Positions 5,926-62,501 of a DNA stretch of 64,000 nucleotides are shown piece by piece; position 1 is the stretch's first letter; each line of letters opens with the position of its first letter. The position numbers and the translations under genes are program-made. A model generated the notes under the pieces. That model ran no database searches. It saw only the letters and a list, made by a program, of their open reading frames with translations, and was not told where the DNA came from. The stretch is from Patescibacteria group bacterium (GTDB lineage Bacteria; Patescibacteriota; Patescibacteriia; JAXHNJ01): contig JBAZMP010000002.1 in NCBI GenBank assembly GCA_041649715.1, forward strand, positions 132,964 through 196,963, read 5' to 3'.

Positions 5926-6390
5926 TTATTCTTTTACGACGTCATCGCCCAAAATTTCATCCAATTTTTTATCCAATTCTTCAATACTCACTTTCTGAAG
6001 TTTTTCCTTGGTCTTTTCTTTAGCCGGTTCCTTCTTAAATATGCGCGGAGCCGGAGCTTCAATGGTCACCGGTCTAGGACGGATTACCTTGGGTTTTTCC
6101 TTAACCGGTTTTTTAATAACCAGCAAAAAACGAAGAATTTCCGTCAACAGTCTTAATTTTTGTTCAAGCGCCGGAAGTTTAGACGGTTCCAGGTCAAAAG
6201 ACAGGAGGTTATAATAGCCCGCGACGGCTTTTTTGATCGGATAAGCCAGCTTTTTTTTGCCCATCATTTCGGTGGCCGTGGCGGTGCCGCCGTCGTTTTT
6301 CACCAAGTTTTCTATTTCGGCCGCCAGTTTGGCGTGTTCTTCGTCAGTAAAATCCGGCCGGATAATATAGAGCATTTCGTAATGTTTCAT
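5926..6390 (-). CDS. rpsF: 30S ribosomal protein S6 with basic/acidic C-terminal extension
   Basis: 'MKHYEMLYIIRPDFTDEE...GYYNLLSFDLEP'. Sits in the conserved rpsF-ssb-rpsR order. Confidence 0.9.
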   Translation of the reverse strand: MKHYEMLYIIRPDFTDEEHAKLAAEIENLVKNDGGTATATEMMGKKKLAYPIKKAVAGYYNLLSFDLEPSKLPALEQKLRLLTEILRFLLVIKKPVKEKPKVIRPRPVTIEAPAPRIFKKEPAKEKTKEKLQKVSIEELDKKLDEILGDDVVKE

Positions 6391-6573
6391 AGGGTATCGG
6401 AATAGGTTAAAGATAAAAAAATAAGCGATTTTTTGCTTAAGAATATTCTAGCACAGACCCGTAAATTAGGCAAGCCTATCAGAGAAGGGAGGTAAAAAAG
6501 CGGGATGAAGGTTAGTTATTATCGGAAAAAAAGACTTTATTTATTCGCTAAAAAGCCGTATAATTGATTTACC

Positions 6574-7836
6574 ATGAACCGTTATTTTTTCATCCTCGGC
6601 CGCAATCAAGCCTTGTCTCTGGCGGAAAGCGCCGCTTTTTTTAGCCGCGAACAGATGGTTTTTAATCCGCTTTATTTAGGCCGGGATTTTTTGGTCTGGG
6701 AGACGGAAAATAAAATTGATTTGAAGGCACTGAATAACCGGTTGGGAGGAGTGATTAAAGCCGGAGAAATATGGGCGGAAAGGCCGAAAAAGCCGGATCT
6801 GCTCGCCGACCTTTCCGAAGCCCTGGGCTTTTCCACTATCAGTAAATTTCTGCCTGTCGGCGCAGAAAAATTATTCTTAGGCTTTAGTCTGTATTTTGAC
6901 GAGGGCAAGAGCTTCATTTATCTGCAAAAAGGCTTGGAAAGGCATTTTTTAAGCCTAAAAAAAGAGATAAAGGAAACCGGCCAAAAATTGCGCTTGGTCA
7001 CTTCGCGCGGCCAGACTCTTTCTTCCGTGGTGGTGAAGAAAAATAAATTATTGACGGCCGGGGCGGAAATCGTCATTTTTGTCACACCCGAAAAAATGTT
7101 TATCGGGAAAACTTCAAGCGTCCAAGATTTTGAGGGTTATAGTTTCCGGGATTTCCAGCGGCCCGGACGGGATATGCGGATCGGTTTGATGCCGCCAAAA
7201 GTTGCCCAAATCATGGTAAATTTAGCGCAGGCCCGGGAAAGTGAGGTCATCTTGGATCCTTTTGCCGGCTGCGGCACGATTTTGCAGGAAGCGATACTCT
7301 TGGGCTATAAAAATTTGGTCGGTTCGGATAATAACCCGCGGGCCTTAAGCCAGACCCGGCAGAATTTAGAATGGTTATGCAGAAATTATAAGATTGACGA
7401 GAAAAAAATCAATGTAAAATTAATGCCGATCGATGTCCGGCAGATATACAAAGACTTAAGCCCCAATTCAGTGGACACAATTGTGACCGAACCATATCTG
7501 GGGCCGGCGCTTGATGATCGACCGGGGGAAGGCAAAATAAGAATGGTGGCGGCTAATCTGAGCCAGCTTTACTTGGATTTTTTCACCGCCATTAAAAGAG
7601 TTTTGAAACCCGGCGGCAAAATAGTCATGATCTGGCCGGTTTTCCGCACTCCGGCCGGCAAGCAGTTTTTGCCGATCTTGGAAAAAGTTCTGGCCAAGGG
7701 TTTTGAAAAAATCAACCTGATTCCCGAAGTTTTTAAGGCCAACGATCTGGAGGAACTAACAAGCCGGGGCTCGATTCTATATTCCCGGGAAGACCAGAAT
7801 GTTTTAAGGGAAATTTTCGTTTTTAAAAATGTTTAG
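6574..7836 (+). CDS. putative RNA (N2-G / N6-A type) SAM-dependent methyltransferase, Trm11/RlmL-like
   Basis: SAM motif I 'ILDPFAGCGTILQEA' and catalytic-type motif 'IVTEPYLG' (NPPY variant). N-terminal THUMP-like region. Confidence 0.7.
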   Translation: MNRYFFILGRNQALSLAESAAFFSREQMVFNPLYLGRDFLVWETENKIDLKALNNRLGGVIKAGEIWAERPKKPDLLADLSEALGFSTISKFLPVGAEKLFLGFSLYFDEGKSFIYLQKGLERHFLSLKKEIKETGQKLRLVTSRGQTLSSVVVKKNKLLTAGAEIVIFVTPEKMFIGKTSSVQDFEGYSFRDFQRPGRDMRIGLMPPKVAQIMVNLAQARESEVILDPFAGCGTILQEAILLGYKNLVGSDNNPRALSQTRQNLEWLCRNYKIDEKKINVKLMPIDVRQIYKDLSPNSVDTIVTEPYLGPALDDRPGEGKIRMVAANLSQLYLDFFTAIKRVLKPGGKIVMIWPVFRTPAGKQFLPILEKVLAKGFEKINLIPEVFKANDLEELTSRGSILYSREDQNVLREIFVFKNV

Positions 7837-11608: not shown

Positions 11609-12205
11609 TTACTTTTTCAGCTTTTTATACGTCATTTTTTTCAGGCCTTGCCACCAATCGGTGGAGGAGGATTTTTCAATGACTTTAAGTATTTCTTTGG
11701 CTGAGGGAGTTTCTAGCGCTTTCCGGACATTATCAATCCAGTTCTGCATGGCGGGATAACCCTGTTCGATGAATTCCTTGGCCGAAACCGCGGTTTCCAA
11801 CCAGTCCGCGTCCTGGGCGATAACACCTTCTTTGGTGTTTCTTTTATTTTTTTCATGATAAAGCTTCAGCCAGGTATCACGTGTTTTATTAGGCAGGGCG
11901 CTGATTTGCTCCAAGAAGGCTTTTTTCTCAGCCGGGCCCGTATCTATATAGCGCGCGGAAACTTTATGGTGGTCGCCGGTCCGAATTTCCGGGAAATCAT
12001 GGATCAGACACATTATACAGGTTTTTTCCGGATTAACATTTTCCAAATCAGCCAAGAGGTAGGCAATGGTCGCGGTCCGGACGGTATGATCCGCCAGACT
12101 GGTTAAATCATTGACGCCGGCAAGCAGTGGCCCGGTGTGTTTTTGCCTTTTGAGCAGGCCGAGTTCAAAAAAGAAATCGGCGATCTTTTTATAATTTGTG
12201 GTCAT
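11609..12205 (-). CDS. HD-domain phosphohydrolase (YfbR-like)
   Basis: 'ADHTVRTATIAY', 'LIHDFPEIRTGDHH', 'DADWLET'. Confidence 0.75.
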   Translation of the reverse strand: MTTNYKKIADFFFELGLLKRQKHTGPLLAGVNDLTSLADHTVRTATIAYLLADLENVNPEKTCIMCLIHDFPEIRTGDHHKVSARYIDTGPAEKKAFLEQISALPNKTRDTWLKLYHEKNKRNTKEGVIAQDADWLETAVSAKEFIEQGYPAMQNWIDNVRKALETPSAKEILKVIEKSSSTDWWQGLKKMTYKKLKK

Positions 12206-13043
12206 ATGGTTGTTTATTTAAATATTCAGAATTAAGATAAGTGTTTTCCAGCAAGTATGCCACGGTCAAGGGTCCCACGCCGCCCGGAACAGGGGAAAGC
12301 CAGGCCGCCTTGTTTTTGACGTCCTCAAAATCCACATCGCCGACCGTTTTTCCTTCTTCCGTGCGGTTGGTGCCGACATCGATCAGGATCGCTTTTTCCT
12401 TGATCACATTGGCTTTAATGAGCAGCGGTCGGCCGTAGGCGGCAATCACGATATCGGCCTCGCGGATGGCATCCTGGAAGTAGTCACCGGATTTTTTGAA
12501 CGTAACTTCCGCTTTCTTTTTTCCTAAGATGAACTTTAAGGGTTGGATGAAAACATCGCTGTTCGCCAGAATAACCGCTTTTTTCCCCCTGAGATTAACC
12601 TTGGTTTCTTTTAATAATGTCAAGATGCTCTTGATTAATCCCGGAACGATCACTTTTTGGCCCAGAATAAGATTTTTGATATTAAAGGGATGAAAGCCGT
12701 CGGCATCTTTCTGCCAATTTATCTGTTTAATGATATTATCTTCGTCCAGATGGCGGGGTAGAGGAAGTTGAACAATAATGCCGTGGATCTTGGGATCATG
12801 GTTAAGATTTTCTATTTTTTCGATAATTTCCTTTTCCTGGGTATAGGTGCTAAAGAAGTGTTTTTCAAAATATATTCCTACTTCTTTGGCCGCTTTTTCC
12901 TTGAGTTTGACGTAAAGTTGGGAAGCGGGGTCATCGCCGACTAAAATCACGGCCAGGCCGGGAGCGTAAGTCAGTTGTGAAACTTGAGTTTTTAGCTTGC
13001 CGAGGATTTTTGAGGCTAAAGATTTACCGTCAATAAGCTTCAT
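12189..13043 (-). CDS. folD: bifunctional methylenetetrahydrofolate dehydrogenase/cyclohydrolase
   Basis: 'MKLIDGKSLA', 'LAVILVGDDPASQLYVKLKEKA', 'IIVQLPLP', 'SPVPGGVGPLTVAYLLEN'. Confidence 0.93.
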   Translation of the reverse strand: MKLIDGKSLASKILGKLKTQVSQLTYAPGLAVILVGDDPASQLYVKLKEKAAKEVGIYFEKHFFSTYTQEKEIIEKIENLNHDPKIHGIIVQLPLPRHLDEDNIIKQINWQKDADGFHPFNIKNLILGQKVIVPGLIKSILTLLKETKVNLRGKKAVILANSDVFIQPLKFILGKKKAEVTFKKSGDYFQDAIREADIVIAAYGRPLLIKANVIKEKAILIDVGTNRTEEGKTVGDVDFEDVKNKAAWLSPVPGGVGPLTVAYLLENTYLNSEYLNKQPYDHKL

Positions 13044-13594: not shown

Positions 13595-14836
13595 TTATAT
13601 TAATTCTGGATAAAGCGGATATTTTTCGGTTAAATCGTGAACTATTTTTAGCACTTCTTTTTTAACCGTATCATCGGTTGGATTCTTTAAAACCCTGGCG
13701 ATCAATTTTCCGATAATTACCATATCGTCTTCTTTAAACCCGCGGGTCGTTAAAGCCGGTGTACCTAATCTAATACCAGAAGGATCCAGAGGTTTTCTCG
13801 GATCATCGGGGATCATATTTTTGTTGACCGTAATTTTAACCGAGTCCAGTAGCTCTTGGGTTTGTTTGCCGGCCAGGCCAAAAGGCGTGACGTCGGTTAA
13901 GATTAAGTGATTCTCGGTCGTGCCGAAACAAATTTTAAAACCCTCATTTTTTAAGGTGTCACAAAGAACTTTAGCGTTCTTTTTGACTTGTCTGGCATAT
14001 TCTTTGAATTCCGGCTGCAAAGCTTCTTTAAAAGCCACGGCTTTGGCGGCGATATTGTGCTCGTGCGGCCCGCCCTGAAAACCGGGAAACACGGCTTTAT
14101 CAATGGCGCTGGCATATTTTTCTTTGCACATGATCAGGCCGCCTCTGGGGCCGCGCAAGGTTTTATGAGTGGTGGTCGTTATTACATCGAAAATCGGCAC
14201 GGGATTGTTCATTTCTCCGGCCGCGATCAAGCCGGCGATATGGGCGACATCTGCCATGGTAATGGCGCCTATTTCATCCGCGATTTCCTTGAATTTTTTA
14301 TAATCCAAATCCCGAGAATAGGCGGAGTAGCCGCACAAAATTATTTTTGGCTTATATTCATGCGCTAATTTTCTGACCATTCCGAAATCGATCAAGCCTT
14401 CCGGCGTGGTCTTGTACCTCACGAATTTAAAAAGTTTGGCCATATAAGTCACGGGGTGGCCGTGCGTCAAATGTCCGCCGTGGGAGAGGTCCATGCCCAA
14501 AACCGTGTCGCCGGGCGAAAGTAAGGCGAAATAAACCGCCACGTTGGCCGGCGCTCCGGAGAGCGGCTGGACATTGACGTGCTCCGCGCCAAAAAGTTTT
14601 TTCGCCCGATCAATGGCGATCTGTTCCACCGTATCCACATTTTCCGTGCCGCCGTAATATCTTTTGCCGGGGTAGCCTTCGGAGTATTTATTGGTCAAAA
14701 CGCTGCCCAGAGCCTCCAAGACGGCCAGGGAAACGAAATTTTCCGAAGGGATCATTTCCAGGCCTTCTTGTTGGCGTTTGATTTCGGCCGCGATGGCGCG
14801 GGCAATTTCCTTATCTTGTTTTTCCAGCTGTTTCAT
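13595..14836 (-). CDS. glyA: serine hydroxymethyltransferase
   Basis: 'IPSENF', '[13 protein letters not shown]', PLP-lysine motif '[14 protein letters not shown]'. Confidence 0.97.
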
Positions 14837-17616: not shown

Positions 17617-18306
17617 ATGACGAAAAAAGGCCAAAAAATCATCATTATCGTAATCGTGGTCCTGGTGGCCATCATCGGTTTCTTGGTAATCGCCCGCCTA
17701 ATAACAGGCGAGGATACTTGGATATGCTCAAACGGCGAATGGGTAAAACATGGTCAGCCTTCGGCCGCCAAACCGACCAGCGGCTGTGGAAATGTTAACA
17801 CTAACCTTAGTAATAGCAATAGTGATGCCAATACTAATTCGAGCGAGAATACCAATTCTACGGCCGGCAGTTTTGATGCCTGCGTGTTAGCGGGCAATCC
17901 AGTGCAGGAAAGCTATCCGCGGAGATGCGCCATGAACGGTCAAACATACACGGAAGATATCGGCAACGAACTGGAAAAAGCGGACTTGATTACGATTACT
18001 TCGCCGCGCCCTAACGCCATAGTGACTAGCCCCATGAGCGTTTCCGGGCAGGCAAAAGGTACCTGGTTTTTTGAGGGCGTTTTTCCGGTCAAATTAACGG
18101 ACGAGAATAATAATGTTCTGGCGGAAACGCAAGCGCAGGCTTCCGGCGACTGGATGACGGAAAATTTCGTCGAGTATACCGCCACTTTGACTTATACGAC
18201 GCCTCTTTCCGGTAAATTATATATGATCTTAAGCAAGGCCAATCCTTCCGGTTTGGCCGCCAACGCCGACGAATTGAAAATTCCCCTGAAATTGTCTAGT
18301 GATTAA
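17617..18306 (+). CDS. secreted protein with Gmad2-type Ig-like domain
   Basis: TM/signal anchor, Asn/Ser-rich linker. 'ITSPRPNAIVTSPMSVSGQAKGTWFFEGVFPVKLTDENNNVL' is typical of Gmad2 domains. Confidence 0.65.
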   Translation: MTKKGQKIIIIVIVVLVAIIGFLVIARLITGEDTWICSNGEWVKHGQPSAAKPTSGCGNVNTNLSNSNSDANTNSSENTNSTAGSFDACVLAGNPVQESYPRRCAMNGQTYTEDIGNELEKADLITITSPRPNAIVTSPMSVSGQAKGTWFFEGVFPVKLTDENNNVLAETQAQASGDWMTENFVEYTATLTYTTPLSGKLYMILSKANPSGLAANADELKIPLKLSSD

Positions 18307-19948
18307 TTAATGCTTTCGCCATATAGGTATTTTCCAGACGGTACCCTGATTTTCGGTAATATTCTCTGACGCCGATGCCAGAAATGACGGCGATTTTTTT
18401 ATAGCTTTTTTTACGAACAATCTTTTCCGCTTCTTGCATTAATTTATAACCGAGGCCTGAGTGTTGGACGGCAGAGCGGATTTGGGAATCCGCTCTTCTC
18501 CGGAGCGGGAGGGATTGGCCGTAGGTGTGGAGTTCGCGGATCAGGGCGGTGTCGGATAACATCGCAGACTGGAAAGTCTGCGATGTGGGGTAAGGAGGAT
18601 GTGATGACGACATCCTATTTATTCCCAGCGCAGGCTTTCTAGCCTGCGCGTCATAAATTTGTGGCAGACGCAACCTTAAAAAAGCATAAAGCGTTTTTTT
18701 ATCTTTTGATTCAAGGCTTAGAAAGATTTCCTGGCCGCCAGAAGCATAATATTGTCTTTTAACTAAGATGATATCTTTCCCTTCAATTGTTTTGCTTTTT
18801 GCTTCCCGGCAGCGGATACATTGGCATTTAACCTTTTTATCCTGTAAAAGCTGGCGCAAATTGGTGATTTTATTACCAGCGATGATGCTGTCTCCGGGAA
18901 TATCGCGGATAAGGCGGTTAATCCGGACATAAGGCGGAACAACCTTTTTGATTTTAACCAACAGCTCATTCAGGGTTTTCGGCGAATATGGTTTGAATTG
19001 GCCCTGTTTGTATGATTTGTAAAGTGGCGCGGTTCTTAAAACTACACACGGGTATATTTTAAGCATATCCGGCTGAAAGCGTTCATCGGAAAATATGGTT
19101 TTAAACATCTTTAAGTCTTTGGCGGGTGTGGAGCCGGGTAAATTCGGCATCAGGTGATAAACGATCTTAAAACCAAAATCTTTCAGGATTTTGGTGGCTT
19201 TCACTATGTGTTCAACGGTATGGCCGCGCTTTATTTTCCTTAAAACTTCCGGATAAATACTTTGGATGCCCAGTTCCAAGCGGGTGATCCCTAATTCCCG
19301 CATTTTCCAGGCTTCTTTTTCGGTGACCAAGTCCGGCCGGGTTTCCACGGACAAACCAATAATTCTGTGTCTGGCTTTTTCATTATCTTTTTGCGCTTTT
19401 GGCAAATCAGAGGCCGGCCGGCCATTTGCGGCTTCAAATAATCTTTTCACAAACCACGCTTTGTATTTTTCCGGATAAGCGGTCCAGCTGCCGCCCAGGA
19501 TAATCAGTTCAATTTTATCGGTTGGATGGCCGGTTTTATTCAGAGCCACAATCCGCATTTTCACTTGTTTATACGGATCAAATTTATTCAAAAAAGCGCG
19601 CTGGGCGGCGGGTTCGTTTTTCAGATAGCTTTTCGGCATCCCTTTTTCGCTCGGGCAATACACGCATTTTCCCGGGCAAGGAAAAGGTTTGGTTAAGACC
19701 GTTATTACGCTGACCCCGGATAAAGTCCGGATTTCTCTTCGCTTCAACAATTTCTCAATTCTCTCAATCCTCTTAATACTTCTTTTAGACACCATTTGCC
19801 GATAAACAGCCAAAAGGGTAATATTAGAGAGGAGAGGTGCCTTATATTCTTTAGAGAATTTACGTTTTAACTGAAGTAATTGAGACAGAGAGGTTGTTCT
19901 TGCTCGAACAAGTTTGTTAATGAATTTTTCTTTAATTTTTTCCTTCAT
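18296..19948 (-). CDS. elp3: Elp3-type radical-SAM / GNAT tRNA wobble-uridine carboxymethyl synthase homolog
   Basis: Radical-SAM cluster motif 'CPGKCVYCP', 'GGSWTAYP', 'RLELGIQS'. C-terminal KAT domain 'IRELHTYG...VQHSGLGYKLMQEAEKI...VISGIGVREYYRKSGY'. Confidence 0.9.
   Translation of the reverse strand: MKEKIKEKFINKLVRARTTSLSQLLQLKRKFSKEYKAPLLSNITLLAVYRQMVSKRSIKRIERIEKLLKRREIRTLSGVSVITVLTKPFPCPGKCVYCPSEKGMPKSYLKNEPAAQRAFLNKFDPYKQVKMRIVALNKTGHPTDKIELIILGGSWTAYPEKYKAWFVKRLFEAANGRPASDLPKAQKDNEKARHRIIGLSVETRPDLVTEKEAWKMRELGITRLELGIQSIYPEVLRKIKRGHTVEHIVKATKILKDFGFKIVYHLMPNLPGSTPAKDLKMFKTIFSDERFQPDMLKIYPCVVLRTAPLYKSYKQGQFKPYSPKTLNELLVKIKKVVPPYVRINRLIRDIPGDSIIAGNKITNLRQLLQDKKVKCQCIRCREAKSKTIEGKDIILVKRQYYASGGQEIFLSLESKDKKTLYAFLRLRLPQIYDAQARKPALGINRMSSSHPPYPTSQTFQSAMLSDTALIRELHTYGQSLPLRRRADSQIRSAVQHSGLGYKLMQEAEKIVRKKSYKKIAVISGIGVREYYRKSGYRLENTYMAKALINH
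18560..18649. repeat. three consecutive perfect hairpins inside the Elp3 coding sequence
   Basis: CATCGCAGACT-ggaa-AGTCTGCGATG (18560-18585). AGGATGT-gatgacg-ACATCCT (18597-18617). GCGCAGGCT-ttct-AGCCTGCGC (18628-18649). Confidence 0.8.
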
Positions 19949-20671
19949 ATGAAACCGGATTACGCGAAATATTTAATCGATAAAGGGCGTAATGATTATA
20001 ATAAAATCGCCCAGCATTTTGCCGAAACTCGCTATCATCTTTGGCCGGATTTTGAAATCTTCCGGCCGTATTTTAAGGATGGCGATACAATTTTAGACGC
20101 GGGCTGCGGCAATGGGAGATTATCAGAAATTTTTGAAAAAATCAAGGTTAACTATATCGGAATTGATTCCAGTGAGAGATTAATCGCCACGGCACGGGTT
20201 AAATATCCCAGCCTGAAATTTGAAGTAGCGGATATACTAGAATTGATTTTTCCCGATGGGCAGTTTGACGTAGTTTTTTTAATCGCGGTTTTACAGCATG
20301 TTCCTTCTAATGAACTGCGGCTTGAGGCTTTTAAAAATATCTATCGCATTTTAAAACCGGATGGCCATCTTTTAATGACTAATTGGAATCTCTGGCAGGA
20401 TATTTTTCGGATGAACCGGTTAAAAAATAACTTAAAAAAACTCCTTGGTTTTAGTCAGCTAGACAAGAATGATATCTTCAAGACTTGGAAATCACCGCAA
20501 GGAGAAATTATCGCGGAGCGTTATTTGCACGCTTTTAATCTTCCAGAAATTGAGGAACTGATGAGTCAAGCCGGTTTTAAAGTTATGAAGAATTTTTATT
20601 CTTTTAAGGGTCGGACCGTTGGACAAAAAGAAGGCCGCAATATTATTACTATCGGTCAAAAAATAGATTGA
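19949..20671 (+). CDS. Trm9/ALKBH8-like class I SAM methyltransferase
   Basis: 'DYNKIAQHFAETRYHLWPDF...ILDAGCGNGRL' parallels the yeast Trm9 'VYNEIAPHFSQTRYKPWP...IDVGCGNGKY'. 'FDVVFLIAVLQHV' parallels 'FDFAISIAVVHH'. ATG 19949 abuts the Elp3 start. Confidence 0.75.
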   Translation: MKPDYAKYLIDKGRNDYNKIAQHFAETRYHLWPDFEIFRPYFKDGDTILDAGCGNGRLSEIFEKIKVNYIGIDSSERLIATARVKYPSLKFEVADILELIFPDGQFDVVFLIAVLQHVPSNELRLEAFKNIYRILKPDGHLLMTNWNLWQDIFRMNRLKNNLKKLLGFSQLDKNDIFKTWKSPQGEIIAERYLHAFNLPEIEELMSQAGFKVMKNFYSFKGRTVGQKEGRNIITIGQKID

Positions 20672-51311: not shown

Positions 51312-51896
51312 ATGACAAAAACAATCGAAAATTTAACTAAAGCGTTTATTGGCGAATCTCAAGCAAGGAACAGGTATACCATCTATGCGGCGCAAGCGAA
51401 AAAAGAGGGCTATGAACAATTAGCGGGAATTTTTGAAGAGACCGCCAATCAGGAGTTTGAGCATGGTGAGTGGAATTTCAAAATGCTCAAAGAATTGCTG
51501 GCCAAAGAAGGTTTAGGCATGCCGGAGCTAAAAGTGGAAGCCGGGGCGCCGACCACCTGGGGCAGCCTGATTGAAAACCTGCAAGGTGCGATCAAAGGGG
51601 AAAACTGGGAGCACACGACCATGTATCCGGAATTCGCGGAACAGGCCAAGAAAGACGGTTATCCGGAAGTGGCCAAGCGCTTACTTTCCATTGCCAAAGC
51701 GGAAGAGCATCATGAAGAAAGATATTTAAAGTACGTGAAAGTGCTGGAAGACGGCACGGTTTTCAAGAAAGAGAAAAAAGTCTGGTGGTACTGCCGCAAG
51801 TGCGGATACATGCATTTTGGCGAAGAAGCGCCGACGACTTGTCCGTCCTGTGGTCATGCGCAAGGGTTTTATCAGATGAAGTGTGAAGAGTACTAA
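51312..51896 (+). CDS. rbr: rubrerythrin
   Basis: Ferritin-like diiron ligands ('EFEH', 'EEHH') plus a C-terminal rubredoxin-like 'CRKCGY...CPSCGH'. RBS 'AAGGAGG'. Confidence 0.93.
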   Translation: MTKTIENLTKAFIGESQARNRYTIYAAQAKKEGYEQLAGIFEETANQEFEHGEWNFKMLKELLAKEGLGMPELKVEAGAPTTWGSLIENLQGAIKGENWEHTTMYPEFAEQAKKDGYPEVAKRLLSIAKAEEHHEERYLKYVKVLEDGTVFKKEKKVWWYCRKCGYMHFGEEAPTTCPSCGHAQGFYQMKCEEY

Positions 51897-51903
51897 ATAG
51901 TAA

Positions 51904-52027
51904 CTGTCACCCTGAGGTGCGGAGCCTCGAAGGGTGACCCTTTAATAAGCTTCCGCTGTCTATACTTCGACACCTTCGCCCTTCGATGCCACTCAGGGCT
52001 CGGGCTCAGTATGACAGCGGACTAAGG
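51904..52027. repeat. palindromic repeat element (core 51905-51938)
   Basis: Identical 34-nt core. Second half 'gctgtctatacttcgac...ctcagtatgacagcgg'. Confidence 0.85.
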
Positions 52028-52038
52028 AGACAAACGAC

Positions 52039-52554
52039 ATGGCCAAGCTCTGGCGCTGCGAAATCTGCGGAGATTGCTATATCGGCGAAAAACCGCCGAC
52101 CAACTGCCCTTTTTGCGGAGCGCATCAAAAATATTTTAAGATCGCCAAAATAGCCAAGGCTAACTTTGACGTGAAGCTGAATGAAAAAGACCTGGCCAAC
52201 GCCGAACACGCCTTAGCCGTGGAAGTCTCCAATTTCACTTTCTATTTCTGCGCGGCCAAGAAAACGGATGATGAAGAAGGTAAGCTGTTATTCAAAGCTT
52301 TGGGCAAGGTGGAGCTGGAGCATGCGACAATCTGGAAGAAAATCTTAAAAAATGCCGCTATTCCGGCGGGCAATGACCAGTGCCATACGGCCAATAAGGA
52401 AAATCTTTCCGACTCGCACGCCCGAGAAACCAAGGCCATTGAATTTTATGCCAAAGCGGCCGGGGAATCGACAGACTCAAGGATCAAGCAGATTTTTGTC
52501 GCCTTAGTGGAAGTGGAGACGGATCATTTACACTTATCCGAGGAACGTTTATAA
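52039..52554 (+). CDS. reverse rubrerythrin-type protein (N-terminal rubredoxin-like Cys4 + ferritin-like domain)
   Basis: 'CEICGDCY...CPFCG' at the N-terminus. 'VELEHA' and 'VEVETDH' diiron-type helices. Confidence 0.8.
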   Translation: MAKLWRCEICGDCYIGEKPPTNCPFCGAHQKYFKIAKIAKANFDVKLNEKDLANAEHALAVEVSNFTFYFCAAKKTDDEEGKLLFKALGKVELEHATIWKKILKNAAIPAGNDQCHTANKENLSDSHARETKAIEFYAKAAGESTDSRIKQIFVALVEVETDHLHLSEERL

Positions 52555-52558
52555 TATA

Positions 52559-52665
52559 TTGTCACCCTGAGGTGCGGAGCCTCGAAGGGTGACGCTTTGA
52601 TAAATACTACTGCCATACTTCGAGGCACTTCGCTTTCGCTCGTGCACCTCAGTATGACAGTATGG
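52559..52665. repeat. palindromic repeat element (core 52560-52593)
   Basis: Identical 34-nt core. Second half 'ctgccatacttcgag...cctcagtatgacagtatgg'. Confidence 0.85.
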
Positions 52666-52711
52666 TAAAAACTTAACTTCTCAACAACTTAACAACTCAA
52701 CAACTAACAAC

Positions 52712-53092
52712 ATGACCCAACTCAAACAAATCTACAAATGCGCGGTTTGCGGAAATATCGTGGAAGTGGTCCATGACGGGGTCGGCCAGCTTGTTTGTTG
52801 CGGCCAGCCCATGGATTTATTGGAAGAAAAGACGGAAGATGCTGGTAAAGAAAAACATGTGCCGGTGATCGAGAATAAAGAAGGCAAAGTCTTGGTGAAA
52901 GTCGGCAGCATCCCGCATCCTATGGAAGAAAAGCATTTTATTGAATGGATCGAGCTGAATACGGATGGGGTGGTCCGACGGAAATTCTTAAAACCAGGGG
53001 ACAAGCCGGAAGCGGAATTCTGCGTCTGCGACGCTAAGGAATTGTCAGCCCGGATTTACTGCAACGTGCACGGACTCTGGAAGAATATATAA
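52712..53092 (+). CDS. dfx: desulfoferrodoxin (2Fe superoxide reductase)
   Basis: Center I '[10 protein letters not shown]...CCGQPM'. Center II region 'KHVPVIE...[12 protein letters not shown]...CNVHGLW'. Confidence 0.92.
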
Positions 53093-56927: not shown

Positions 56928-56999
56928 TCCGCGATAGCTCAATGGTAGAGCAACCGGCTGTTAACCGGTAGGTTGTCGGTCCGAATCCGACTCGCGGAG
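56928..56999 (+). tRNA. tRNA-Asn(GTT)-like gene with non-canonical T-loop (TCCGAAT)
   Basis: TCCGCGA ta GCTC aatggta GAGC a ACCGG ctGTTaa CCGGT aggtt GTCGG tccgaat CCGAC TCGCGGA g. Position 55 is C instead of the near-universal U. Flanked by TACCCAAAGC / GCTTTGGGTA. Confidence 0.7.
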
Positions 57000-57020
57000 C
57001 TTTGGGTATTTTATTTATTT

Positions 57021-57867: not shown

Positions 57868-58148
57868 GGGCGCCGCGCTCAGGGGTAGTTGAGCTGGTAC
57901 CCCGCATAACTCACTGTGTTCGTATGCGGGGCAGGCAACGCCGGTAATATATTTTAATGATTATTCCAGCTCTCCTGTAGTTTAATTGGTAAAACGCTGC
58001 ACTGTTAATGCAGAGATTGGAGGTTCGAGTCCTCCTGGGAGAGCTGGGATAATCATTGTAGCACTGCTTGTCCCGTAGGAACAGAAAGCGACTTACGGGA
58101 TTAATGCGGAGACCGCTGGTTCGAATCCAGCCCCCTGAGCGCGGCGCC
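57868..58148 (+). pseudogene. degenerate tRNA(Asn-like) gene interrupted by hairpins and by a complete nested tRNA-Asn cassette
   Basis: 18-bp closing helix GGGCGCCGCGCTCAGGGG / CCCCTGAGCGCGGCGCC. 5' block 'tcaggggtagttgagctggta'. 3' blocks 'gcactg' + 'ttaatgcggagacc GCTGG ttcgaat CCAGC cccctga g'. Hairpins at 57900-57931 and 58071-58100. Confidence 0.55.
57971..58043 (+). tRNA. tRNA-Asn(GTT), canonical
   Basis: TCTCCTG ta GTTT aattggta AAAC g CTGCA ctGTTaa TGCAG agatt GGAGG ttcgagt CCTCC TGGGAGA g. Closely resembles E. coli tRNA-Asn. Flanked by GATTATTCCAGC / GCTGGGATAATC. Confidence 0.93.
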
Positions 58149-59000: not shown

Positions 59001-59462
59001 ATGGACCCAAACGCCATTAATTTTTTAAGAGATTCGCTGGCTCACCACCATAATTTGAGGAATTCTTTGGACGGCAAAGCCTCTTTTTTATTGGCCATTG
59101 CCGGGGTGGTTTTCGGCTTAAGCGTTATCAGACTGGAAAAAGTCCAGTTTGTGGTGATTGCCATTACCGCTTTTCTGACCATTCTTTTGACGGTCTTCGC
59201 CGTCTTTCTGCCTTACCGCGGGAAAATGAAAGAGAAAATCGGCCTGATGTGCTGGTGGGGTTTCGCCGGAAAAAGTTATGAAAGCTACCAGGAAGAAGTT
59301 AATCGAGTTATTAAAACTGACGAAGCGATTGCCGACGAATATAAGAAGGAGATCTGGAATCTGGCCAATTATTCTCTAAGACCGAAGTCAGTCTTGCTGA
59401 AATGGGCGAGTTTCGTTCTGACGGTCGGGCTTTTGGCCGGGTTTGTTCTGTTTTTCGTTTAA
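59001..59462 (+). CDS. 3-TM protein, DUF5706 / Pycsar-effector (PycTM)-like
   Basis: 'HHHNLRNSLDGKASFLLAIAGVVFGL' followed by a second TM and a C-terminal TM. The pattern was recalled from memory and was not searched. Confidence 0.45.
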   Translation: MDPNAINFLRDSLAHHHNLRNSLDGKASFLLAIAGVVFGLSVIRLEKVQFVVIAITAFLTILLTVFAVFLPYRGKMKEKIGLMCWWGFAGKSYESYQEEVNRVIKTDEAIADEYKKEIWNLANYSLRPKSVLLKWASFVLTVGLLAGFVLFFV

Positions 59463-59612
59463 ATAATAGAATCAAAATAGCCGAATTTTAGGGCTATTTT
59501 TTTGTTTGACTAAAAATCATTCTTATGGTAAGAAACATTAACGCCCTTTGACAGTTTTATAATTTTTCAAGTCACAAAACACAGAAATCTTCAAGAAAAC
59601 AAGGAGGTGGAG

Positions 59613-62501
59613 ATGGAAGAGAATCATGGTTTTAACCTGGAAACGCCCCTGGCTGTGACCCCTGATGATATTAAGAGCATTTCTGATCCATCTCCGCGTT
59701 TTCGGAGCTGGGCCTGGCAAATGTATCTTCGCCGCGAGCTTAACCTGATCGTGGAGGCGGTCATCTGGTTGGGCAAAGCGGCCAATATCATCGAAGCCCT
59801 TGCTTATCTTAACCGTCTGACGGTTGAGTATCCGGAAACCGAGCTGAAGGTCGTGGTCAAGGATCTGGAGAATATCCGAGATCCCGGCCCGAAAATGGTG
59901 AAGCTAAGAACCCTCGTGAGAGGGATCAGAGCCAAAGCGAAGGATCCGCAGCTCACGCGCGGCGCCTTGACGCATCAGGCGGTCAATGACCTTTTTAGCG
60001 GTCGGCTGATGTCTTCCGGCGGGAGAAGAACCGACAAGACTTCTTCTCAGCTTGAATTGTTCAAGCTTGAGAAAAGCCGTCAGATTCTTCTTTTTGATGA
60101 ATTCGCCGAGGAGTCAGTTCAAAGCGAAAAATCGGAAAAAATGCGTCTGAGCCGCACCCGAGTGCTTAATCGGATTCAGCATCACTGGAAAGTGATAAGG
60201 TCGGCCATCGAAAAGCAGGGTTGGCCGGCCTGGCGACGGAAAAGGCGAAACGTCAATTGTCTGGAAAAATGGCTGGCGATTCTTTTCGGCGAACACGCCG
60301 TTAAGCTTGGCGCCGAAGTAGGCTTCGGCGAACACTTTAAGGTGTTGACCGAGCTGACTTGGGCCGCCGCCGCGAGCTATTGGCTGAGAGAAAGACAAAG
60401 GCCGATGATTTTGTTCCGGGAGATAAACGTGATTGCCTCGCGTCATCACCTTGGCGGCGGACGCATTGACGCTCTTGAGGTGCGTCGCATCGGCGGAAAG
60501 TTGCCGAATCGGAGGCAAGACCGGATACTTACCGAAATGAGCCGTAACCGCTATAAATCCGTCGGCCATCTGATCATGGAGCTTGGCAAACGCTTTGACC
60601 AGCCGGTTGAAGTGACGGTCATCGACTGGAAATCTTTGGTCGGCGACGTGGTCACCGGGGATAAAGAATGGTCTTCGACGGATTTAAAAAAAGAACCCCA
60701 ATTCGCCGATCAGGAACAGATGAAGAGGTATCTGACGCTGATCCCTCTGGATTGCTACTTGGTCGGTCAAAAAGGTGAGCTTTGGCGACCCGAAGACGTG
60801 ACTCTGCGCGGGGAACTCTGGTATTTGATGCCTGACCAGGCGCCCATTGTTCATGAAGTGAGCATGGCCGTCGAGCAAATGCAGGATTATTTTTTGAATT
60901 ACGTCGTGCTTGAGTGGCCCGAAGCTTCCCGGCGGGCTTTGGCCAGGGAAGTCAATAACATTTTCCTTCGCCATCTGGTCGAGATCCATGAAAAAGGGGA
61001 AAGTCGCCCGAAGAAAGGAGCTTTCGGCAATAATCATAACGGGAATCAGGCTCTGCCACTTTTCCCGGAAGAAAAAGTAAAAGTCGTGTCCGTCCGGGAG
61101 ATAATCCGAGCGCATCGGGATAAATATCCGCTCTTTGCCGACCGCCGGCAGATTCTCCAGATTGTGGGCAAGCGCCGCAAGACAGGGACCCATAAATTGG
61201 AGATGAATTACAGCAAGCTGCTAGAGGCCATGGCAAAAGGGGAGGTAAAAACCTACAGTTGGTCGGATCCCGCCCAGCCTTTTACCGTGCAGTGCCTGAT
61301 GGACGATCACCGGGATTCTGACCCTTCCATGCGTATTTATCCCGACTGGTTACGTTTCTGGTGTTTCGGTTGCCGCACGGGCGGAAGCATTGCCATTGAA
61401 TCCGTGCCGGGCGACCTCGCCAATCGACTGGCGCCAAAATGGCAGGAAATCAGCCGCCAGCCCACTAAGCTTGACTGGTCGGTCTTGCCGGTTATTCCCG
61501 AAGAACATGACCGGATTATGCGCCGCGCCCAGCAGTTGCTGGCCTTATCTTTTTGGCCTAGTCCGGCGGTGGAATATCTGCGTCAAGAAAGGAGAGTAGA
61601 TCCTTCCCTGGCTTATGAATACGGCGCGGGTTACGGCAATAACAGCTTGATCATCGGGTTGATGAGTGAAGGTTATTGCTTAGATGATCTGATCCGCTAC
61701 GGATTCGTAAAAATCACGCCTAATTTCTGGCGGGCCAGCAGTCTGATCGGATTGTTGCAGGAAGAGTTCGGTCTTTCCGCTCAGGAAATCACGCGCGAGT
61801 ACTTATCTAAGAAGACTCAGCGGACGGAAATTGGTTATCCCTATTCAGTTCTGGCTGGCCGCGTGACTTTCCCTTTGAAGCTTGAAGGCAAACACACCAA
61901 TTTCTATGGCCGGATAATTCCGCCTACAGAGGAGATGCTGACGCACATCAAGCTTTCGATGCTGGGCGAAAAAGTCGTCCAGGGCGGCTTCAATACCGAC
62001 ATTCTTTTGTCAGACGCTAAGGAGGTGAAATTTGCCGAAGCGGTCATTGATACTCTGACCTTAGCCCAGATGGGTTATCGGAACGTGATCGCTTTGGTCG
62101 GCACCGAGAATGTCGAGATTCTCAAAGCGGCGATCCGGGCCCGCAAGAATATTGGCTTGTCCCTTGATTACGACAAGTTCGGCCGGAAGCTGACCCTGAG
62201 GACGATCAGGCGTTATTTGGCCACGGTGAATTTGGGCGGCGAAAAAGTCTGGCGGGAAATTGATCAGTATGTCCGCGAGATTGAAGAAGCGATCAAGAGG
62301 GAGGAAACGGGAGAAAAAGAAGCTCTTCATTTCGGGGAATATTTCCGCCGGCTGGGTTACCTGGGGATTGAGGATTTCACCGCTAGATTCGTGGCTGACC
62401 ATCGGGAATGTCTTGGTCGTGAATTTGATTTCAACACCTGGTGGCAGAGATTCGGTTGTCAAAACGCACCTTTATCTTGGGAGGAAGACAATAACGCGTA
62501 G
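59613..62501 (+). CDS. fusion protein: RecB-family PD-(D/E)XK nuclease-like N-terminal half + CHC2 zinc finger + Toprim primase-like C-terminal half
   Basis: RBS 'AAGGAGGTGGAG'. 'GGGRIDALEV', 'VTVIDWKSL', 'EQMKRYLTL' (D / DxK / QxxxY). 'CLMDDHRDSDPSMRIYPDWLRFWCFGCRTGGSIAIE' (CHC2). 'FAEAVIDTLTLAQMGYRNVIALVGT' and 'LSLDYDKFG' (Toprim E, DxD). Confidence 0.75.
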   Translation: MEENHGFNLETPLAVTPDDIKSISDPSPRFRSWAWQMYLRRELNLIVEAVIWLGKAANIIEALAYLNRLTVEYPETELKVVVKDLENIRDPGPKMVKLRTLVRGIRAKAKDPQLTRGALTHQAVNDLFSGRLMSSGGRRTDKTSSQLELFKLEKSRQILLFDEFAEESVQSEKSEKMRLSRTRVLNRIQHHWKVIRSAIEKQGWPAWRRKRRNVNCLEKWLAILFGEHAVKLGAEVGFGEHFKVLTELTWAAAASYWLRERQRPMILFREINVIASRHHLGGGRIDALEVRRIGGKLPNRRQDRILTEMSRNRYKSVGHLIMELGKRFDQPVEVTVIDWKSLVGDVVTGDKEWSSTDLKKEPQFADQEQMKRYLTLIPLDCYLVGQKGELWRPEDVTLRGELWYLMPDQAPIVHEVSMAVEQMQDYFLNYVVLEWPEASRRALAREVNNIFLRHLVEIHEKGESRPKKGAFGNNHNGNQALPLFPEEKVKVVSVREIIRAHRDKYPLFADRRQILQIVGKRRKTGTHKLEMNYSKLLEAMAKGEVKTYSWSDPAQPFTVQCLMDDHRDSDPSMRIYPDWLRFWCFGCRTGGSIAIESVPGDLANRLAPKWQEISRQPTKLDWSVLPVIPEEHDRIMRRAQQLLALSFWPSPAVEYLRQERRVDPSLAYEYGAGYGNNSLIIGLMSEGYCLDDLIRYGFVKITPNFWRASSLIGLLQEEFGLSAQEITREYLSKKTQRTEIGYPYSVLAGRVTFPLKLEGKHTNFYGRIIPPTEEMLTHIKLSMLGEKVVQGGFNTDILLSDAKEVKFAEAVIDTLTLAQMGYRNVIALVGTENVEILKAAIRARKNIGLSLDYDKFGRKLTLRTIRRYLATVNLGGEKVWREIDQYVREIEEAIKREETGEKEALHFGEYFRRLGYLGIEDFTARFVADHRECLGREFDFNTWWQRFGCQNAPLSWEEDNNA

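Follow-up and report, generated by a model that had tools for sequence, protein, structure and literature searches.

An Elp3 gene and a Trm9-like methyltransferase gene arranged start-to-start in Patescibacteria, with a predicted role in tRNA wobble uridine modification

Introduction

Archaeal Elp3 alone makes 5-carboxymethyluridine (cm5U) in vitro, and the Trm9-Trm112 enzyme of Haloferax volcanii converts cm5U to 5-methoxycarbonylmethyluridine (mcm5U) (PMC7663514, PMC6144793). Modification of the mcm5U34 type, named after the wobble uridine U34 of tRNA, has been reported from eukaryotes and from one archaeon (H. volcanii) in the papers that we consulted, which give no direct evidence for it from bacteria. 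The clustering of Elp3 and Trm9 genes has been noted for Sulfolobus only (PMC6144793). Here we describe a stretch of 64,000 nucleotides (referred to as the window), which is a portion of a 255-kb contig from a metagenome-assembled genome (MAG) of Patescibacteria, also called the candidate phyla radiation (CPR). In this window a gene for a stand-alone Elp3 lies head-to-head with a gene for a methyltransferase of Trm9 type, and the same pair is kept in most of the homologous loci that we examined.

With regard to bacteria, a specialist review from 2020 described Elp3 as confined to Dehalococcoides and found no evidence for xcm5U in this domain (PMC7663514), and a paper from 2026 mentions Elp3 in "numerous bacteria" without giving detail. 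The bacterial enzymes MnmE and MnmG, which form 5-carboxymethylaminomethyluridine (cmnm5U34), have the same target as Elp3, i.e. C5 of the wobble uridine, and tune the decoding of NNA and NNG codons. However, their chemistry is unrelated, as a GTPase and a flavin adenine dinucleotide (FAD)/folate enzyme using glycine take the place of a radical S-adenosylmethionine (SAM)/acetyl-CoA enzyme. Closer in protein family is MnmL of Firmicutes (MnmL/MnmM, also YtqA/YtqB), which is related to the radical-SAM domain of Elp3 but lacks the KAT domain, and whose paired methyltransferase acts on xm5U34.

Results

The gene pair

Both genes are intact open reading frames (ORFs), and their positions, strands and lengths agree with the initial annotation of the window, as does the way in which the two start codons abut:

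18296-19948, minus strand: Elp3 gene, 550 amino acids, ATG start, with radical-SAM and KAT (GNAT) domains; predicted tRNA U34 cm5U synthase (from TIGR01211, Pfam and PDB relatives)
19949-20671, plus strand: Trm9-like class I SAM methyltransferase, 240 amino acids; predicted carboxyl methyltransferase from cm5U34 to mcm5U34 (from PDB search, hhalign and comparison of hidden Markov models, HMMs)
19946-19951, both strands: CATATG junction of the divergent start codons with zero intergenic bases (from the sequence and an independent gene call)

The methyltransferase starts at the ATG at 19949 and not at the TTG at 19880 of the mechanical ORF list. The ATG was preferred because independent gene calling for the source contig chose it, and because the methionine at this position is at least 90% conserved in an alignment of 41 homologues. 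This alignment was used for all conservation values of the methyltransferase given below.

Trm9-like identity of the methyltransferase

Pfam detected generic methyltransferase domains only, and the NCBIfam matches were all below threshold (TIGR01934, score 41.7 against a cut-off of 158; TIGR01983, 48 against 103; TIGR02072, 43 against 185), which is why databases label such proteins "class I SAM-dependent methyltransferase" or "UbiE". A search of the entire PDB with the single sequence gave Trm9 of Yarrowia lipolytica (5cm2_Z) as the top match, with an E-value of 3.7e-20 over query residues 25-219, while the second-best match (8e-16) covered the SAM core only. With the profile of the 41-sequence family, Yarrowia Trm9 was again first at 6.1e-27 and the runner-up reached 2.1e-22.

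As reference we used fungal proteins named "tRNA (carboxymethyluridine(34)-5-O)-methyltransferase", 18 of which were aligned. Comparison of the CPR family with these fungal Trm9 sequences by hhalign gave a probability of 100 and an E-value of 6.6e-42 over 205 columns, and the alignment spans from the N-terminal VY..IA.HFS.TRYKPWP motif through the C-terminal asparagine. The HMMs of the two families also recognise each other, as the fungal Trm9 model scored a median of 89 bits on 222 CPR homologues, with the nearest generic methyltransferases at about 22 bits, and the CPR model a median of 115 bits on 120 fungal Trm9 proteins against 64 bits for generic methyltransferases. Judged by these profile comparisons, the methyltransferase is specifically Trm9-like. 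This is in line with the initial annotation, which had proposed a Trm9-like rather than a generic enzyme; the strings that it had quoted, DYNKIAQHFAETRYHLWP...LDAGCGNGR and FDVVFLIAVLQHV, are found in the translation.

The CPR protein has the class I fold and the Y..IA.HF..TR...WP motif in common with Trm9 and the ALKBH8 domain (Saccharomyces cerevisiae, Y. lipolytica and the H. volcanii Trm9-Trm112), and its gene is associated with that of Elp3, as in Sulfolobus. It differs from fungal Trm9 by an identity of about 27-30%, by helix and hairpin insertions of its own, by the start-to-start arrangement with Elp3 and by not being recognised as Trm9 by the databases. The family is large, with 1,834 clusters at 50% identity matching its profile at E<=1e-30, and the best 150 of these clusters contain CPR-type proteins only. 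Public annotation of the family is inconsistent: JGI labels one member (P0070) "alkylated DNA repair protein alkB family protein 8", which is ALKBH8, the animal Trm9 fusion, and most others are labelled UbiE or generic. Some members carry additional sequence. One protein of 366 amino acids (P0066) is fused to a C-terminal SET domain (PF00856), and four others of 300-377 amino acids (P0025, P0368, P0429 and P0446) have N- or C-terminal extensions.

Catalytic and substrate-binding residues

In ScTrm9, the S. cerevisiae enzyme, eight residues (R29, D72, H116, W145, W168, R241, Y243 and N271) cannot be mutated without complete or severe loss of activity (Létoquart et al., PMC4678810). The counterparts in the window protein are R28, D73, H117, W146, W180, R191, L193 and N231, respectively. 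Seven of the eight essential residues are thus kept, and within the CPR family each of them shows at least 90% conservation or no variation at all. The conserved positions, all on the plus strand, are the following:

19997-20047: N-terminal Trm9 signature Y17-N-K-I-A-Q-H-F-A-E-T-R28-Y-H-L-W32-P33, aligning to the fungal VYxxIAxHFSxTRYKPWP; R28 and W32 invariant, Y17, I20, A21, F24 and T27 at least 90% conserved
20093-20119: SAM-binding motif I, L49-D-A-G-C-G-N-G-R57; D50, G52, C53, G54, G56 and R57 invariant
20165-20167: D73, counterpart of ScTrm9 D72 (SAM-binding Asp); invariant, from the PDB and hhalign alignments
20297-20299: H117, counterpart of H116; invariant, from the PDB and hhalign alignments
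20384-20386: W146, counterpart of W145; invariant
20486-20488: W180, counterpart of W168; at least 90% conserved
20519-20521: R191, counterpart of R241 in the alignments, with L193 two residues further in place of Y243
20639-20641: N231, counterpart of N271; invariant, and paired by hhalign with the invariant fungal D-N-W

For the yeast enzyme it has been proposed that the counterparts of R28, H117, W146, R191 and N231 bind the carboxylate of cm5U together with the uracil ring; H116 would position the carboxylate, W145 would stack on U34 and N271 would read the O2 and N3 atoms of uracil (PMC4678810). The R29A mutant retains 5% activity, and both D72A and the H116 mutant are inactive (PMC4678810). 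Two elements are specific for the CPR family, namely a helix at about residues 151-170 and an insertion of 10 residues (a hairpin) directly before N231.

Identity and features of the Elp3 protein

The Elp3 protein scored 548.5 bits with the NCBIfam model TIGR01211 (ELP3), for which the cut-off is 350, and both Radical_SAM (PF04055) and Radical_SAM_C (PF16199) of Pfam were above their cut-offs. Its strong relatives in the PDB are Elp3 proteins only, of archaeal, bacterial and eukaryotic origin: Elp3 of Methanocaldococcus infernus (2.7e-124), of Dehalococcoides mccartyi (3.4e-116) and of yeast (4.4e-96), with the yeast and mouse chains of Elongator subunit 3 matching at about 1e-96 to 1e-102. 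Conservation was assessed in an alignment of 33 CPR homologues, and the following features, all on the minus strand, were recognised:

19733-19948: basic N-terminal extension, residues 1-72, with 22 Lys/Arg (alignment and composition count)
19655-19678: radical-SAM [4Fe-4S] motif C91-x3-C95-x2-C98, invariant in the 33 CPR proteins
18809-18826: three cysteines of the prokaryotic Elp3 zinc site, C375, C377 and C380, in the central linker; invariant
18554-18661: hypervariable loop, residues about 430-465, preceding the KAT-aligned part; from few to more than 50 residues among CPR Elp3 proteins
18308-18574: KAT (GNAT) domain with acetyl-CoA motif Q495-H496-x-G498-x-G500, from the M. infernus alignment; motif invariant

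The KAT domain corresponds to residues 459-547, the second stretch aligned to M. infernus Elp3 (9.9e-13); the match of Pfam Acetyltransf_10 to this region is weak and sub-threshold (0.0022). On every sequence criterion that could be applied the protein is a member of the Elp3 family. The identity claimed by the initial annotation is thereby confirmed, with its CxxxCxxC motif present as C91-PGK-C95-VY-C98. Formation of cm5U34 is, by analogy, the most likely function.

Like the archaeal stand-alone enzymes of M. infernus and M. jannaschii, the window Elp3 comprises radical-SAM and KAT domains in one polypeptide, with no Elp1, 2, 4, 5 or 6. The zinc cysteine triad and the acetyl-CoA motif are common to the window protein, the archaeal enzymes and D. 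mccartyi Elp3; the zinc-site cysteines are a conserved feature of the bacterial and archaeal proteins that eukaryotic Elp3 does not share (PMC6367351). The basic N-terminal extension is shared with archaeal Elp3, whereas D. mccartyi Elp3 lacks it, its chain aligning from query residue 73 only and the yeast chain from residue 23. The N-terminus of archaeal and eukaryotic Elp3 binds tRNA (PMC6367351). The window protein differs from M. infernus Elp3 in three respects: its host belongs to Patescibacteria, its hypervariable loop is missing from the archaeal protein in the pairwise alignment, and its cysteine motif is one residue shorter (CP-GKC against CPHGKC), so that the window protein has the canonical Cx3Cx2C and the archaeal protein Cx4Cx2C in the alignment.

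Relatives of Elp3 at E<=1e-20 numbered 7,962 in a protein search, and the earlier statement that only scattered bacterial homologues are known is therefore out of date. The best 120 of these relatives are at least 51% identical to the window Elp3, and every protein among them that carries an NCBI name is an Elp3 of Patescibacteria.

Conservation of the gene pair

Two scans with opposite starting points were used. The first, seeded with the methyltransferase in one genome per GTDB species, gave at least 466 relatives, and the best 80 loci were examined. Nearly all of these are from Patescibacteria MAGs, with a few bins carrying other labels, and the lineages comprise Magasanik-, Kuenen-, Kerfeld-, Falkow-, Buchanan-, Komeili-, Portnoy-, Moran-, Lloyd- and Gracilibacteria as well as Paceibacterota and Saccharimonadales. 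The methyltransferases of these loci are 33-46% identical to the window protein. Both genes were present in 71 of the 80 loci; in 65 Elp3 was directly upstream and divergent, and in a further 6 it was on the same strand within 10 kb. The 9 loci without Elp3 include several on truncated contigs.

The reverse scan of metagenomes, seeded with the Elp3 alignment, gave 74 informative loci, of which 64 contained both genes (methyltransferase divergent upstream in 60 and elsewhere nearby in 4) and 10 had no methyltransferase. Pooling of the two seedings gives 154 informative loci, and in about 135 of them the pair stays adjacent although the genes on either side change. Such pairing is far beyond chance, since most of about 150 independent loci in other genomes show it. 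The linkage, whose absence from other genomes would have refuted the reading of the initial annotation, is kept whether the loci are found through the methyltransferase or through Elp3.

In 81 loci the ORFs lying up to about 5 kb from the pair were all clustered, and no third conserved partner (Trm112 or a thiolase) emerged; the recurrent small "ORFs" around the pair are antisense artefacts inside Elp3. The next commonest neighbours in these loci were serine hydroxymethyltransferase (SHMT; 22-24 loci), FolD (15-18) and a DUF8173 membrane protein (13-16). SHMT and FolD, both of one-carbon metabolism and located in the window at 13595-14836 and 12189-13043 on the minus strand, recur upstream of Elp3, which may be plain synteny. 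A different arrangement was seen in one of the 6 same-strand loci, from a Gracilibacteria MAG (L046), where the genes are directly adjacent, co-directional and operon-like, with Elp3 at 435-1976 and the methyltransferase at 1990-2694, both on the plus strand and 13 nt apart.

The start-to-start junction

The geometry of the junction was compared in 116 divergent pairs by means of the in-frame start codons nearest to the homology-extrapolated N-termini. In 69 of the 116 the gap between the start codons was between -2 and +7 nt. The commonest form (35 pairs) is a single shared CATG, i.e. a 2-nt overlap of the start codons, followed by the CATATG of the window (14 pairs), and gaps of 1-7 nt were found in 20. 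Independent gene calls gave a zero gap here and in two other genomes (methyltransferases 44-50% identical) and 150 nt in a fourth. For comparison, the distance is 69-635 bp in the eight other divergent pairs that the gene calls for this and one related genome contain.

No positioned -10, -35 or Shine-Dalgarno signals were found on either side of the junction in the 69 tight pairs, only T-rich sequence, and a consensus promoter scan of the window junction was at chance level (2 sites against 2.2 expected). A Shine-Dalgarno-like motif is present in 15 of 59 called genes of this genome, and the upstream sequences of many genes, housekeeping genes included, show a TATAAT-like box at a distance of 7-13 nt upstream of the ATG. 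Leaderless mRNAs, or mRNAs with a very short leader, thus seem to be common in this genome. As most genes would have no Shine-Dalgarno sequence and a short leader or none, a divergent pair with zero gap is workable. Since almost no intergenic DNA is left, the signals for the start of transcription and translation of each gene would lie within the first codons of its partner, and from the geometry it is reasonable to place each promoter inside the other gene. The two genes may also be co-regulated.

Loci with an asparagine-synthetase homologue

Three of the Elp3 loci without the methyltransferase carry beside Elp3 a stand-alone C-terminal domain of asparagine synthetase (PF00733), with the PP-loop SGGxDS and no glutaminase domain. 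The two complete copies match PF00733 at 4.5e-37 and 7.4e-39. The positions in the respective loci are:

L123, 5205-5993, plus strand: asparagine-synthetase homologue; Elp3 at 5986-7542, in an operon in which the end of the homologue, stop codon included, overlaps the Elp3 start by 8 nt
L120, 1-435, minus strand: asparagine-synthetase homologue; Elp3 at 622-2283
L104, 8323-9243, minus strand: asparagine-synthetase homologue; Elp3 at 5995-7794

In one of the latter two loci the homologue occupies the divergent upstream slot, and in the other it is convergent downstream of Elp3. It was found in none of about 140 loci that bear the methyltransferase. The enzyme that converts cm5U to 5-carbamoylmethyluridine (ncm5U) has been described as unknown (PMC6144793, PMC6367351), and our literature search gave no paper combining ncm5U and asparagine synthase. 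The homologue is a possible candidate for this amidating enzyme and, with three loci, should be regarded as a lead only.

Genomic surroundings

The 64 kb around the pair are ordinary chromosome. Other genes of the window encode RpoC, FtsK, RecA, elongation factor P (EF-P), SSB, S6, YchF, FolD, SHMT, phosphoglucomutase, a class I aminoacyl-tRNA synthetase (tRNA-synt_1b), RNase J, UvrA, UvrC, GroES/EL, pyruvate phosphate dikinase (PPDK), rubrerythrins, DnaG and RpoD. An Rfam scan of the window detected tRNAs and no other RNA family; two of these, both tRNA-Asn(GTT), closely follow rpoD and are spaced by about 1 kb (56928-57000 and 57971-58044, plus strand). Two rubrerythrin-like genes and a desulfoferrodoxin gene (51312-53092, plus strand) form an oxidative-stress set typical of anaerobes. 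At 59001-59462 (plus strand) a protein of 153 amino acids has a PycTM domain (PF18967), which in Pycsar anti-phage systems is the transmembrane effector domain, and the gene after it (59607-62501, plus strand) encodes a protein of about 962 amino acids whose sole match is a weak Toprim_2. These two genes may constitute a defence locus.

Discussion

We regard the pair described here as a bacterial addition to a pathway that is already known, with an unusual conserved gene arrangement. That CPR proteins are Elp3 is already known in so far as the NCBI pipeline names them so; the databases do not record that the partner is a Trm9, nor that the two genes form a conserved module. Our searches of the searchable literature brought up no paper that connects Elp3 or Trm9 with CPR/Patescibacteria, Saccharibacteria and Parcubacteria included.

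By analogy with the archaeal and eukaryotic enzymes, we propose that the stand-alone, archaeal-type Elp3 and the bacterial Trm9 orthologue act in sequence on the wobble uridine of tRNA. Elp3 would use its radical-SAM and acetyl-CoA-binding domains for adding a carboxymethyl group at C5 of U34, giving cm5U34, and the methyltransferase would use SAM for methyl-esterifying the carboxylate, giving mcm5U34. A 2-thiolation, encoded elsewhere in the genome, could possibly follow. Taken together, the family assignments, the kept active-site residues and the linkage make it probable that the two enzymes act in this order and that mcm5U34 is the product.

Some of our observations weigh against this proposal. 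Of the eight essential ScTrm9 residues, the counterpart of Y243 is the one that is lost, being L193 in the window protein and variable across the CPR family. Eukaryotic and archaeal Trm9 need Trm112, and the 81 loci share no Trm112-like gene at a distance of up to about 5 kb from the pair; the CPR methyltransferase may be independent of such a partner. About 10-15% of adequately flanked loci carry only one gene of the pair. The AlphaFold2 model of the methyltransferase has a mean predicted local distance difference test (pLDDT) value of 96, and a Foldseek comparison of this model with the PDB placed Trm9 second (6.6e-18, template-modelling (TM) score 0.83), marginally behind an uncharacterised methyltransferase of Methanosarcina mazei (3sm3); by fold comparison, Trm9 cannot be told apart from the other class I enzymes. 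Finally, Elp3 of D. mccartyi, the sole bacterial Elp3 assayed, was reported to be weakly active (PMC7663514).

The loss of the Y243 counterpart and the lack of a Trm112 gene near the pair, together with the CPR-specific helix and the hairpin before N231, would also fit a methyltransferase that is tied to Elp3 but catalyses another reaction, either on a different Elp3-dependent intermediate, at another position of the same tRNAs or on another C5 side chain that Elp3 would make and the methyltransferase complete. The three loci in which an amidating enzyme of asparagine-synthase type stands by Elp3 point in the same direction, as they indicate that the step after Elp3 can differ between lineages. 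However, the counterparts of R29, H116, W145, R241 and N271, by which the carboxylate and the uracil ring would be held, all show no or almost no variation, and the similarity to Trm9 extends beyond the SAM core into the substrate-binding N- and C-terminal parts of the protein. We therefore consider another reaction unlikely, although it deserves to be kept in mind.

A pair of MnmL/MnmM type, acting in the 5-methylaminomethyluridine (mnm5U) branch downstream of MnmE/MnmG, would likewise consist of a radical-SAM enzyme and a small methyltransferase, and the radical-SAM part of the window protein does give a partial match to the MnmL/YtqA model TIGR01212 (1.3e-24). But this match is confined to residues 192-366 and reaches 86.8 bits against a cut-off of 180, compared with 548 bits for ELP3; the window protein has the KAT domain that MnmL is without, and no MnmM-type model or structure is among the matches of the methyltransferase, which is not MnmM-like. 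The family scores effectively rule out this assignment, to which we give very little credence. Least probable of all is a generic small-molecule methyltransferase of UbiE/SmtA/BioC type whose position next to Elp3 is meaningless, for which only the generic Pfam domains and public labels speak, and which is ruled out by the profile tests, where the specific NCBIfam models (UbiE/MenG, UbiG, BioC and Tam) all stay far below their cut-offs and PDB, hhalign and cross-HMM comparisons give Trm9-specific similarity, and by an adjacency that outlasts the turnover of the flanking genes.

If successive action of Elp3 and the Trm9-like methyltransferase is accepted, it is tempting to go further and to suppose that a large part of the CPR makes the mcm5U34-type modification by a stand-alone Elp3 and a Trm112-free Trm9 in replacement of MnmE/MnmG, with the genes organised as a bidirectional unit on a shared CATG, and with a sister variant in which the asparagine-synthetase homologue amidates cm5U to ncm5U. 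This wider scheme is put forward tentatively, and that it should hold in all its parts is conceivable rather than probable.

The finding may be of use in several ways. About 1,800 clusters of "class I SAM-dependent methyltransferase" gain a specific and testable name, and among them would be small, single-subunit and possibly Trm112-independent Trm9 enzymes for biochemical study. The divergent arrangement on a shared CATG offers a compact natural case of two genes that would have their expression signals inside each other. The pair also bears on the history of the Elongator pathway, which could reflect ancient inheritance or transfer between CPR and archaea. Overall, that an Elp3/Trm9-like pair is kept together in hundreds of Patescibacteria species suggests a whole radiation with a tRNA modification of "eukaryote type", and it predicts that a major branch of the bacteria would decode split codon boxes with a wobble modification of the archaeal and eukaryotic kind.

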